From Nocardioidaceae bacterium (GTDB lineage Bacteria; Actinomycetota; Actinomycetes; Propionibacteriales; Nocardioidaceae): DNA of 50,503 nt. This document shows, piece by piece, positions 26,084 through 39,621 of the stretch (within the stretch, counting starts at the first letter, position 1; the number at the start of each line of letters is the position of its first letter). The notes beneath the pieces are model-generated. The model made no database searches and had not been told where the DNA came from. It saw only the letters and a list, made by a program, of their open reading frames with translations. The DNA lies in contig DATHBP010000199.1 in NCBI GenBank assembly GCA_035296085.1, forward strand, positions 1 through 50,503. The letters are read 5' to 3'. Position numbers and translations under genes: made by a program.

Positions 26084-26092
26084 TCCTGTGGA
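26084..26092 (+). promoter_or_regulatory. TCCTGTGGA motif copy A, 68 nt upstream of ORF 26160
   Basis: Exact 9-mer within ggggTTCCTGTGGAGACGTCgcg. See the findings for the other copies. Confidence 0.4.
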
Positions 26093-26159
26093 GACGTCGC
26101 GCCCAGTCGATGCCTCCCCGCCGCTCGGCTGCGGTCGAGGGTTGGTCTAGCGTCCGGAT

Positions 26160-26717
26160 ATGCGCTGGGACGAGCTGTTCGCGGACCTCGAGCTCCAGCT
26201 CGCCGCGACCGACGAGGCCGAACGCGACACCGAGGTGGCCGAGCGAACCCGCATCGAAGACAGCGCGATCAGCTGGCGCCAGCGGCTTCGTGCCCACGTG
26301 GGCGAGGACCTCGAGGTCGAGGTTCGCTCGCTCGGGCGGCTCCATGGATCGTTGGCGCGTGTAGGAGCCGACTTCACGCTCATCACCGCGCAGGGGAAAG
26401 GGTTCCTTGTCCCGTTAGCCGCCGTTGTCGCGGTCCGCGGTCTAGGAAACGCGGCGGACACGACCCCGGCGGGTGCGGCGTCTCGGCTCGGCCTCAGCTC
26501 GGCACTGCGAACGCTGGCTCGAAGACGTGCCGTTGTGACGGTCTACCGGGTAGACGGCCACGCGCTGACGGGCACGCCCGCGCGGGTGGGCAGCGACTAC
26601 GTAGAGCTTGCCGTCCACGCGGTCGAGGACGGACCGCGGCAGGGGGCGGTCAGCTCACGACGAGTCGTCCCGTTCCCCGCCGTCGTCGCCGTGCGGCTCG
26701 CCGACGGCTGGCCGTGA
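26160..26717 (+). CDS. hypothetical protein with an acidic helical N-terminus and an internal duplication
   Basis: 185 aa, ATG start, good GC3. Two related modules: aa 65-94 (LARVGADFTLI...FLVPLAAVVAVRGL) and aa 140-180 (PARVGSDYVEL...RVVPFPAVVAVRL). I recognise no named family. Confidence 0.65.
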   Translation: MRWDELFADLELQLAATDEAERDTEVAERTRIEDSAISWRQRLRAHVGEDLEVEVRSLGRLHGSLARVGADFTLITAQGKGFLVPLAAVVAVRGLGNAADTTPAGAASRLGLSSALRTLARRRAVVTVYRVDGHALTGTPARVGSDYVELAVHAVEDGPRQGAVSSRRVVPFPAVVAVRLADGWP

Positions 26718-26721
26718 CGCT

Positions 26722-26979
26722 TCATCTGCGGGTGGGAGCGTCGTCCTCGTCCTCCGCTCCGAACGGATGGCTTGTGATGAACTCGGAGGTCTCGTCGTAG
26801 GAGCGCTCGATGTATGCGTCGAGCTGGCTCTCCTCGACGCGCCACTGGCCCCGCCCGCCGATCTTGATCGCCTTGAGGTCGCCGCGGCGGACGAGGGCGT
26901 AGACCTGTGCGGCCGAGATGTTCAAGATCTCCGCGACATCGGCGAGCTGGAGGAACCGGGTGCGGTCGCCAGGTGCCAT
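26722..26979 (-). CDS. excisionase-family (MerR-like) helix-turn-helix DNA-binding protein
   Basis: Track ORF trimmed to the ATG at 26979-26977. MAPGDRTRFLQLADVAEILNISAAQVYALVRRGDLKAIKIGGRGQWRVEESQLDAYIERSY, followed by an acidic tail. Confidence 0.8.
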   Translation of the reverse strand: MAPGDRTRFLQLADVAEILNISAAQVYALVRRGDLKAIKIGGRGQWRVEESQLDAYIERSYDETSEFITSHPFGAEDEDDAPTRR

Positions 26980-27005
26980 GGGGGTCAGTGTGGCAGAAGG
27001 GACAT

Positions 27006-37500: not shown

Positions 37501-39457
37501 CGTCCGCCGGCACTTCCGAGAGATGGGGGTGAACTGCCAAGCCGAGGACTTCACCTGCATCGGGATCGGGGACATGTCCGGAGACGTGTTCGGCAACGGT
37601 GTGCTGCGCAGCCAGCACACCCGGCTGGTCGCCGCGTTCGACCACCGCCATATTTTCCTGGATCCCAGTCCTGACGCCGCGACGTCGTTCGTGGAGAGAC
37701 AGCGGCTCTTCGAGCTACCACGGTCGTCGTGGGCCGACTACAACCCGGACGCGATCTCAGCTGGCGGCGGGGTCTACCCCCGTACGGCCAAAGCAGTGCC
37801 GGTGTCCGACGCGGTGCGCCAGGCGCTGGGCATCGAGTCGTCGGGAACGTCGATGACTCCGCAGGAGCTGATGCGCGCCATCTTGCTCGCGCCCGTGGAC
37901 CTGCTCTGGAACGGCGGCATCGGCACCTACGTCAAGTCCGCGGCCGAGTCCCACGCCGAGGTCGGCGACAAGGCCAACGACGCGATCCGCGTCAACGGTG
38001 AGGAGCTGCGCTGCCGCTGCGTCGGTGAGGGCGGCAACCTTGGCCTGACCCAGCGGGGACGGATCGCGTACGCGATGGCGGGTGGCCGCATCAACACCGA
38101 CTTCATAGACAACTCCGCCGGAGTCGACACCTCCGACCACGAGGTGAACATCAAGATCCTGCTCGACCGGGTCGTCGACGACGGCGACATGACCCGCAAG
38201 CAACGCGACCAGCTGCTCGCCGGCATGACCGACGAAGTCGGCACGCTCGTGCTCCGTGACAACTACGACCAGAACGTCGCCCTGGCCAACGGCGTGGCGC
38301 AGGCCGCTCAGCTGCTGCACGTCCACGCCGACTGGATACGAAGGCTCGAGAAGAAGGGACACATCAACCGGGCCATCGAGTTCCTTCCGACGTCGAAGCA
38401 GATCGCGGAGCGACGCGGCGAGGGCAGAGGCCTGACAGCGCCGGAACAAGCCGTGCTCATGGCCTACACAAAGATCGTGCTGGCCGCCGAGCTCATCGAC
38501 AGTTCCCTGCCCGAGGACCCGTTCTTCGCTCGCTACCTCGTCGGCTACTTCCCCGCGCCGATGCGCGAGCGGTTCCGGGCACACATGGAGGACCATCCGC
38601 TGCGGCGGGAGATCATCATCACCCAGATCGTCAACACTTTGGTCAACGGCGCCGGCATGACGTTCTTCCACCGGCTGAGCGAAGAGACCGGCGCCTCTGC
38701 CACCGACCTGGCACGGGCCAACCTCGTCGGGCGGCGGATCTTCAACCTCTCGCCACTGTGGGGCAGCGTCGACGCGCTGGACAACAAGGTGCCCGCCGTC
38801 GTCCAGACCAAGATGCGGCTCGAGATTCGCACTCTGGTCGAGCGCGCGAGCCGCTGGCTGGTCAACAACCGCCGATCACCGCTGGACTCCCAGGCGACCC
38901 TCGACCACTTCGGCGAACTGGCTCAGGTGGTGCTGGCGGAGCTCCCCGACCTGCTCGTCGGCCGCGAAGCGGTGCTGTTCAGCCGCCGCCGCGACTATCT
39001 GGTGGAAGCCGGTGTGTCCAAGGAGGTCGCTGTCCGGGTCGCCGTCATGCCACCGGCGTACGCCGCGCTCGGCATTGTCGAGACCTCCCGCCGGGAGCAG
39101 ATCGACCCGGTCGAGGTCGCCCGCGTGCACTTCGCGCTCGGCGAACGGCTGGGCCTCGACCGGTTGGTCGAGCGGATCTTGGCGCTCCCACGCGACGACC
39201 GCTGGCAGACGATGGCGCGAGCAGCCCTGCGCGACGACCTGCATGGAGTCCACGCGCAGCTCACCGCGCAGCTGCTGACGAGCACCGACGCAGACGACCC
39301 CGTCGACAAGCGGATCGCCGACTGGGAGCACTCCAACGGCGTCCTCACGCCACGCGCCATCGCCAGTCTCGACGAGATCTGCATTGACGAGGCCGCCGAC
39401 CTGGCCCGGCTGTCAGTGGGCTTGCGGGTGGTCCGCACGCTGCTGGCGACGCCCTAG
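34595..39457 (+). CDS. gdh: NAD-specific glutamate dehydrogenase, large (about 180 kDa) class
   Basis: 1620-aa ORF with a GGAGGG RBS. The conserved central catalytic region includes [39 protein letters not shown] and GPDMGT-like DKGTATFSD. Confidence 0.92.
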   Translation: [1620 protein letters not shown]

Positions 39458-39493
39458 CGGGAGGCAGGACAGACTGCGGCTGAGCGGAGCGGT

Positions 39494-39539
39494 CGGTCGC
39501 TAGCCGCTCTGGGTGACTCCAGAGTCGTTATAGCGACCG
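39494..39539 (+). terminator. compound stem-loop downstream of gdh (candidate factor-independent terminator or RNA-stabilising structure)
   Basis: Outer 9-bp stem cggtcgcta (39494-39502) / tagcgaccg (39531-39539). Inner 6-bp stem ctctgg (39507-39512) / ccagag (39519-39524) with a 6-nt loop. It begins 37 nt after the gdh stop. There is no U-tract. Confidence 0.4.
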
Positions 39540-39580
39540 CGGGCTCACCCAAAGTACTGCTTGCGCCTGTCTGAGCGGGA

Positions 39581-39621
39581 CTTTCCACAGGACTCTGGAC
39601 CCGCTGGCGTCCTGTGGAAAG
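39581..39621. promoter_or_regulatory. perfect 13-bp inverted repeat CTTTCCACAGGAC-N15-GTCCTGTGGAAAG upstream of tadA
   Basis: Read directly: arms at 39581-39593 and 39609-39621. The right arm ends 51 nt before the tadA ATG. Each arm contains the 9-mer TCCTGTGGA. Confidence 0.55.

Follow-up and report, generated by a model that had tools for sequence, protein, structure and literature searches.

A ten-nucleotide sequence, TTGTCCACAG (reverse complement CTGTGGACAA), stands in front of both halves of a Tad pilus gene set in contig DATHBP010000199.1 of a Nocardioidaceae bacterium (50,503 nt, referred to here as the window) and in front of the corresponding genes, together with competence genes, in related actinobacteria. 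We propose, with a probability of roughly 60%, that a sequence-specific transcription factor binds this sequence (the box) and thereby co-ordinates a regulon for DNA uptake (competence) and the Tad pilus in Actinobacteria. Members of the regulon would be the tadA operon, the SAF–TadZ operon, comF, comEA/comEC, the DUF6459 operon and the regulator's own gene. The box is conserved across relatives, it obeys rules of strand and distance, footprinting assigns these genes to it, and a small protein encoded beside it has the predicted fold of a winged helix; from these observations we infer a binder, a sign of regulation and a set of transcription starts.

An earlier note on this DNA had singled out a 9-mer, TCCTGTGGA, said to occur four times and always in non-coding DNA. 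This was borne out. Exact matches lie at 26084-26092 (+), 27028-27036 (+), 39584-39592 (−) and 39610-39618 (+), that is, four copies in the window against 0.39 expected; none of 100 dinucleotide-preserving shuffles gave four copies, and all four are intergenic on a gene map built from Pfam, NCBIfam and open reading frame (ORF) analysis. When one mismatch is allowed the window holds 11 copies against 9.7 expected, a set that includes the box B2 and lpqB copies described next and amounts to no enrichment, so the signal lies in the intergenic set and not in the word in general. The one-insertion copy claimed beside the second site (box B2) is present as CCCTGTGGA at 27040-27048. So is the near-copy claimed within lpqB (TCCTGTGGT, 18532-18540), but it breaks an invariant base, is coding and is probably irrelevant, and we rejected it as a site. 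The repeated 9-mer therefore marks a real box without being the conserved unit: the left half of TCCTGTGGA is not kept in relatives, where the footprint is the asymmetric 10-mer and not the palindromic-looking 9-mer, and a reading of the word as a palindromic dimer site, GTCC-N3-GGAC, was rejected for this reason. A literature search found the 8-mer as a published motif in no paper and, in keeping with the note's statement that it knew of no such regulon, brought to light no comparable motif or regulon.

The note had also called for alignment of the orthologous spacers, and footprinting across more than 100 related loci lends support to its proposal that a shared promoter or regulator box links the two Tad halves. 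One half, a SAF-domain gene and a TadZ-like gene, is divergent from a gene encoding an 85-aa helix-turn-helix (HTH) protein of the HTH_17 family. Scanning genomes with the HTH protein gave 20 actinobacterial loci, from Nocardioidaceae and Propionibacteriales metagenome-assembled genomes (MAGs), from seven species of Kineococcus and from a single MAG of Mycobacteriales. All retain the block HTH–ORF185–DUF6459 operon; most have secA next to the block, and its other side is taken up by the SAF and TadZ genes wherever the locus reaches that far. No tadA gene was found within 10 kb of the block in the 20 loci. Nearly every HTH/SAF spacer contains GTCCACAG or its complement. Towards SAF the word is inverted (CTGTGGA on the SAF sense strand) and stands 30-31 nt (29-32 at the edges) before a NANNNT hexamer in 20 of 23 loci. 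Towards HTH an inverted word is offset by exactly 30 nt in seven loci (L001-L006 and L020), and a sense TCCACAG lies 37-39 nt before the −10 in 11 others, namely the window, L103, the seven Kineococcus loci, L010 and L012. Paired inverted copies are spaced by 9, 10, 21 or 26 nt, yet each keeps a fixed distance from a −10-like hexamer, which links every box to a promoter of its own; for the same reason we rejected a fixed inverted-repeat operator in this spacer. In Kineococcus one box serves both divergent promoters. The −10 hexamers of the HTH/SAF loci lie 6-8 nt ahead of the start codons, implying leaderless mRNAs. By alignment, the two boxes of the window's spacer appear to belong to different promoters, B1 to that of the HTH gene and B2 to that of the SAF–TadZ operon (Table 1). 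One clade (L002-L006, L008, L020) also carries a tandem repeat, GCAACCGCAG-GCAACCGCAG, that overlaps the −35 region of the HTH promoter between box and −10. In the window an inverted repeat, CCGGCGGA-N6-TCCGCCGG, is present instead at 27006-27027, and both kinds of repeat could be additional operator elements.

The other half of the Tad set gave an equally constrained pattern. A metagenome scan returned 80 tadA loci at 67-74% TadA identity. Among the 59 distinct tadA upstream regions with enough sequence, TCCACA is on the sense strand in 55 and on the other strand in one. Clustering these 59 regions at 75% identity leaves 54 clusters, which shows that the flanks of the tadA box are not conserved; the consensus of the box itself is TTGTCCACAG(AT). 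In 45 of 65 tadA regions the box is followed at a distance of 38 or 39 nt by a NANNNT hexamer, and in 49 of 65 at a distance of 37-39 nt, typical examples being TAGGTT, TACGTT, AAGACT and CATACT. No opposite-strand −10 signal was seen in the tadA upstream regions and the gene upstream of tadA is co-directional in nearly all loci, hence the box belongs to tadA; a divergent promoter was rejected on both counts.

In the window the tadA box is accompanied by an inverted second copy, and the two are indeed the arms of an inverted repeat (13 bp), as the earlier note had it. Comparison with relatives suggests that C1 serves tadA, and that C2, and hence the palindrome, is a lineage-specific extra copy, possibly a negative or dual-control site. 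Other extra copies lie near the transcription start or ribosome-binding site in L098, L036, L092 and L102. Taken as RNA, the palindrome forms a stable stem (−32.7 kcal/mol, z = −3.9), which might be thought to act as a gdh terminator or a tadA leader structure and to leave the other copies of the word to coincidence. We find this barely credible, since no T-tract follows the palindrome, the terminator scan called nothing there, arm C1 alone is conserved in relatives, the predicted transcription start lies downstream of the palindrome and in over 100 loci the word is conserved without forming a palindrome; for C1/C2 the missing T-tract and the conservation of C1 only led us to reject it. A separate conserved leader element, (A)TCTC(TT)ACTCGGGA followed by GGGGA, lies 10-40 nt before the tadA start in many relatives (including L048, L049, L063, L028, L033 and L059). 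The window is without it, and it gave no Rfam family match.

Because transformation in Micrococcus luteus needs Tad pili and ComEA/EC, we looked for the box at comEA. The loci fetched ahead of this search contained no ComEA gene; comEA loci were retrieved with a hand-written consensus query, the matches to which are real proteins. The box or a recurring one-mismatch variant precedes comEA/EC in six of six independent loci, 36-39 nt before TAGCGT, TACGTT or CAGGCT, with an in-frame ATG or GTG 6-7 nt further on. The variants are GTGCACAG, found also before tadA in three loci, and GTCCACCG, the latter before comEA in L114. In L108-L114 the ATG or GTG that comes 6-7 nt after the TAGCGT-type −10 is about 300 nt upstream of the annotated comEA start. 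It appears from this that comEA is leaderless, that its real start lies about 300 nt upstream and that annotation has missed an N-terminal extension. Ahead of comF, the exact box GTCCACAG lies between the lpqB stop codon and comF in L009, L104/L105, L106 (Nocardioides pakistanensis) and L107 (Kribbella), and the variant TCGTCCACCG stands there in the window and in L103, its 95% relative; comF, too, appears leaderless. Since comF and comEA/EC carry the box, the regulon is wider than Tad and looks like a competence regulon.

Site A is the copy that changed its assignment. The earlier note took it to mark ORF 26160 (ORF185); the box is indeed intergenic there, but it better fits, by position and strand, the divergent promoter of the 25325-26008/DUF6459 operon. 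The distance from ORF185 to the box is inconstant (39, 46, 50, 26 and 55 nt), which makes ORF185 a doubtful target. Orthologous DUF6459 promoters read TTGACN-17/18-TA(G/A)AAN, and in five loci (L001, L009-L011 and L106) an inverted box in the arrangement CTGTGGA-N7-TTGAC stands ahead of the operon. In L103, the 95% relative, the core of box A is retained and displaced by 2 nt. The window's own −10, TATACA, is without T6 and is not called by an E. coli-type scan. The 407-aa ORF at 24762-26008 (−) is split in related contigs into a 227-aa protein with a faint LysM-like match and a DUF6459 (Rv3235-like) protein, and it is probably two overlapping genes. Both the 227-aa gene and the DUF6459 gene appear, by footprinting, to belong to the box regulon.

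Across these targets the box takes two positions. In class D it is on the sense strand, 36-39 nt ahead of a TANNNT −10 hexamer, and in class P it is inverted and precedes the −10 hexamer by 30-31 nt or a TTGAC −35 by 7 nt. In 763 kb of fetched DNA, of which 9.6% is intergenic by a rough gene call, the 8-mer occurs about 55 times in intergenic and about 8 times in truly coding sequence; the box is some 50-fold denser in intergenic DNA and its copies are confined to a few promoters. The box does not fit the pattern of a DNA uptake sequence (USS/DUS), which would have hundreds to thousands of copies genome-wide in genes and terminators: the 50.5-kb window holds only seven copies of the 7-mer. An E. 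coli-type promoter scan made no call at any box site, which is expected of weak −35 promoters in high-GC DNA, and the core promoters were read from the alignments and not from consensus strength. The earlier note had thought of a dedicated promoter element, and a short conserved word at a fixed distance from gene starts could in principle be the −35 element of an alternative (extracytoplasmic function-type) sigma factor. We rejected this as very improbable: the box occurs in both orientations and at two distances, impossible for a sigma −35 element, and the TANNNT hexamers, which lie 6-7 nt before leaderless starts, are 30-39 nt from the box, far beyond a −35/−10 spacer. Several promoters have tandem sense-strand boxes (those of comEA in L112 and L113; also L111, L114, L038 and L044), for example TGTCCACAG-N9-TGTGCACAG with an 18-nt period, with other pairs 27 to 59 nt apart. 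This arrangement hints at cooperative binding at some targets.

We suggest that a transcription factor would recognise the single asymmetric site as a monomer at two orientation-coupled positions on one DNA face, about one helical turn apart: class D near −55 (sense) and class P near −45 (inverted). Both would lie upstream of weak −35 elements in promoters of the housekeeping-sigma type, a good many of which would be leaderless, and a single box could serve two divergent promoters. The pattern of positions suggests activation by contact with RNA polymerase, as at class I and class II promoters under MarA/SoxS/Rob in E. coli, reportedly described by Martin et al. in 1999. There too a monomer-type asymmetric site flips its orientation between a distal and a −35-proximal position about one helical turn apart, and the distances here are coupled to orientation in the same manner (sense at 36-39 nt, inverted at 30-31 nt from the −10). 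The resemblance is one of promoter geometry only: MarA, SoxS and Rob belong to the AraC family, have two HTH units and recognise a site of 20 bp, whereas the candidate here is an HTH_17 winged helix and does not have the two HTH units of that family. Extra copies within a core promoter, such as C2, might add repression at high regulator levels.

The binder is probably the adjacent HTH_17 protein, the regulator that the earlier note had proposed and still the best candidate. Its gene is the only one with a recognised DNA-binding domain in the conserved block DUF6459 operon–ORF185–HTH–SAF–TadZ, and it carries the box itself, which suggests autoregulation. The protein matches PF12728 (55.5 bits, cutoff 27) and TIGR01764 (37.6 bits, cutoff 28.8) and has 3645 homologues. 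An AlphaFold2 (AF2) model with a confidence score (pLDDT) of 86.6 shows a MerR-type winged helix, made up of a strand, two helices and a wing, and in addition one long C-terminal helix. The nearest folds are the Xis protein of mycobacteriophage Pukovnik (4j2n, root-mean-square deviation 1.3 Å over 48 residues) and then BldC (Foldseek TM 0.8-0.89 normalised to BldC, 25% identity). A phmmer search against all PDB sequences, BldC entries 6amk and 6ama included, gave no match at E ≤ 1 except a designed repeat protein.

Genetic evidence from M. luteus bears on the same gene arrangement. There a small HTH-17 gene, Mlut_14660, is divergent from a SAF (CpaB-like) gene, Mlut_14650, and a TadZ/CpaE-like gene, Mlut_14640, away from the tad clusters, and the locus is linked genetically to comEA/EC expression and to Tad-pilus-dependent transformation (PMC8467076). 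In that study Mlut_14660 was a hot-spot of an ethyl methanesulfonate (EMS) screen on a comEA/EC-lacZ reporter, with three missense alleles, and could not be deleted, and a mutation in its 5′ untranslated region (5′UTR) cut transformation 100-1000 fold. The hot-spot also spans Mlut_14650, which is in one operon with Mlut_14640 and whose knock-out lowers transformation 10^4-fold. The authors' model is one of transcriptional interference, with no binding site or regulon proposed, and neither the paper nor its supplement contains promoter sequence (PMC8467076). [quoted passage not shown] The likeness of the two loci is one of arrangement as published; the M. luteus study gives no DNA motif, and the organisms studied here are Nocardioidaceae-like.

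The box could be a genuine site of the same regulon and yet be bound by a different factor encoded elsewhere, the HTH_17 gene being merely a target. This is unlikely but deserves serious weight, for the HTH gene bears the box just as the other targets do, the HTH_17 protein is a candidate binder only, and single-domain Xis/BldC-like proteins usually bind AT-rich or repeated sites. Against it, no other gene in the conserved cluster has a recognisable DNA-binding domain, and missense changes in the equivalently placed M. luteus gene alter comEA/EC promoter activity (PMC8467076). MtrA, the nearest other regulator, recognises direct repeats of the form (G/T)T(G/A)ACC-N5-GT(G/T)ACN that are unlike the box, which is single and has no second 6-bp half-site 11 bp away. 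Nor does the arrangement of the box match the CRP/GlxR-type consensus TGTGA-N6-TCACA. MtrA, BldC and CRP-type motifs were thus rejected as the identity of the box, as their sequences and arrangements differ.

A mainly repressive action of the HTH_17 protein, bound to the box, on the Tad and competence genes, along the lines suggested for M. luteus, we regard as improbable. Expression of comEA/EC-lacZ rose with the missense alleles of Mlut_14660, and the authors take com repression by the HTH as their working model (PMC8467076), C2 lies within the tadA promoter spacer, and in L098 an inverted box directly follows the −10 hexamer. However, in most promoters the single conserved box is placed upstream of a weak −35 with constant helical phase, as is usual for activation, whereas repressor sites normally overlap the core promoter with variable spacing, and the 5′UTR mutation of Mlut_14660 lowered transformation.

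Several points weigh against activation through the HTH protein as we propose it. The HTH assignment is drawn from adjacency, autoregulation logic and genetics in a different genus, and the M. luteus authors propose that the HTH protein represses com genes, since missense alleles raise the reporter (PMC8467076); the raised reporter fits a repressor as well as it fits altered-function alleles of an activator. The −10 hexamers and transcription starts at the box promoters are predicted ones, the starts in the window being placed near 39641 (tadA), 26979 (HTH), 27092 (SAF), 26034 (DUF6459 operon) and 18912 (comF). Site A, the Ku site described below, the relation to ORF185 and comF of L107 do not fit cleanly into the two classes; in L107 the best −10 hexamer of comF is at offset 30, not 37-39. 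Finally, BldC of Streptomyces forms head-to-tail multimers of varying length on AT-rich direct repeats, AATTxxxxC (PMC5859096), unlike the single GC-rich TTGTCCACAG, around which the tadA alignment contains no periodic repeats.

In other respects the HTH_17 protein resembles BldC, a small MerR-type winged helix with no effector domain and with asymmetric, directional binding sites (PMC5859096). Its AF2 model likewise consists of the winged helix without coiled-coil or effector domain, although the two proteins share no significant sequence similarity and the HTH_17 protein is set apart by a further conserved C-terminal helix and by an HPFG motif. With the excisionases (Xis) of phages and integrative and conjugative elements it shares one Pfam family (HTH_17/TIGR01764), and Pukovnik Xis is its best fold match. 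No integrase or mobile element lies nearby, however, and in 20 genomes the gene is part of conserved core synteny, secA–DUF6459–ORF185–HTH–SAF–TadZ, so that by its context the protein is not an excisionase. In function the box recalls the ComK K-box of Bacillus, the cin-box/ComX of streptococci and CRP-S/Sxy of gamma-proteobacteria, each a short element uniting pilus genes, comEA/EC and comF; the sequence is unrelated to theirs, the regulator is of another family and the pilus is of Tad/Flp type. We put forward tentatively, at somewhat below even odds, that TTGTCCACAG and the conserved 85-aa HTH_17 protein together form the master regulatory switch for natural competence in Actinobacteria, functionally analogous to ComK, ComX or Sxy.

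[quoted passage not shown] If the proposal is right, this would be the first competence regulon of the phylum, joining a Tad DNA-uptake pilus, SAF–TadZ, ComEA/EC and ComF, and the DUF6459/Rv3235-like protein, its 227-aa neighbour and ORF185 would be new DNA-uptake or competence factors. An inducible competence programme would then exist in many soil genera not known to be transformable (Nocardioides, Kribbella, Kineococcus and Jatrophihabitans relatives), and switching the regulator on could help make recalcitrant actinomycetes transformable. A box shared by tad, comEA/EC and comF, together with a candidate regulator, makes the question of competence regulation experimentally simple and offers a bioinformatic handle for predicting competence regulons across Actinobacteria. 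Annotation would gain a comEA start about 300 nt upstream, a leaderless comF and a biological context for DUF6459. The most fitting description of the element is that of a conserved promoter box for competence and Tad genes in Actinobacteria, many of them soil members.

Table 1. Boxes, predicted promoter elements and genes in the window, in order of position
Feature	Position	Strand	Basis or remark
Degenerate box TCGTCCACCG, between lpqB stop codon and comF, class D	18852-18861	+	37 nt upstream of GAGGGT (18899-18904); GTG at 18912 7 nt later
ComF-family phosphoribosyltransferase gene	18903-19622	+	TIGR00201 comF and GntX matches, both below cutoff; homologues named ComF family protein in sources
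Two overlapping genes: 227-aa protein without Pfam family (25325-26008) and DUF6459 protein (24762-25328)	24762-26008	−	
Predicted core promoter of 25325-26008/DUF6459 operon: −35 TTGCTA (26069-26064), −10 TATACA (26046-26041)	26041-26069	−	17-nt spacer; tentative
Box A, GTCTCCACAG on − strand, class D-like site of divergent 25325-26008 and DUF6459 operon	26086-26095	−	39 nt upstream of TATACA, with TTGCTA as −35
HTH_17/excisionase-family gene, 85 aa, single-domain winged helix, candidate box binder	26722-26979	−	PF12728, TIGR01764
Predicted HTH −10 CACACT, leaderless mRNA implied	26987-26992	−	7 nt before ATG; orthologues CATACT/CACACT 7-8 nt before ATG
Box B1, ACGTCCACAG on − strand, putative class D site of HTH gene	27030-27039	−	37 nt upstream of CACACT; offset shared with L103 and seven Kineococcus loci
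Box B2, CTGTGGACGG read on + strand, putative class P site of SAF–TadZ operon	27042-27051	−	31 nt upstream of CACAAT
Predicted SAF–TadZ −10 CACAAT; likely start codon GTG at 27092	27080-27085	+	inferred
SAF-domain (CpaB/RcpC-like) gene and ParA/TadZ(CpaE/Ssd)-like ATPase gene	27092-29034	+	weak Pfam SAF match, Pfam ParA match; CpaE_hom_Actino below cutoff
Box-like TTGTCCACAA before Ku	29725-29734	+	position weight matrix score 16.7, best in window; 26 nt before Ku start (ATG 29760); function uncertain
Box C1, CTTTCCACAG, putative class D site of tadA promoter, conserved copy	39581-39590	+	38 nt upstream of CATAGT; geometry in 49/65 relatives
Box C2, inverted second copy within tadA −35/−10 spacer	39612-39621	−	same copy not seen in 80 related tadA loci
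Predicted tadA −10 CATAGT, predicted transcription start near 39641	39629-39634	+	matches NANNNT peak 38-39 nt after box; inferred
tad operon: tadA (T2SSE), tadB and tadC (T2SSF), TadE-like, TadG-like	39673-44277	+	Pfam, NCBIfam matches

Genes in the window (Pfam, NCBIfam and ORF analysis; further coordinates in Table 1) run in the order mtrA, mtrB, lpqB, the comF-family gene, hpf, an AlkZ-like gene and secA; then, on the − strand, the 227-aa gene overlapping the DUF6459 gene; ORF185 (26160-26717), which has no family match; and, again on the − strand, the HTH_17 gene. These are followed by SAF (about 27092-27751), the ParA/TadZ-like gene (27748-29034), HAD, Ku, aldehyde dehydrogenase, DUF6328, DUF2505, TDO and gdh, and then by tadA (39673-40977), tadB, tadC and the TadE-like and TadG-like genes. 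The copy of TTGTCCACAA before Ku overlaps any core promoter there, and the box is absent before Ku in L007; it may reflect lineage-specific control of non-homologous end joining or chance. Between the comF-family gene and hpf/raiA lies a full-length raiA RNA motif (Rfam RF03072, 142.7 bits) at 19638-19903 (+), and a WhiB-family transcription factor gene, unrelated to the box, lies at 7011-7277 (+), upstream of a manB/pgi/sahH block.

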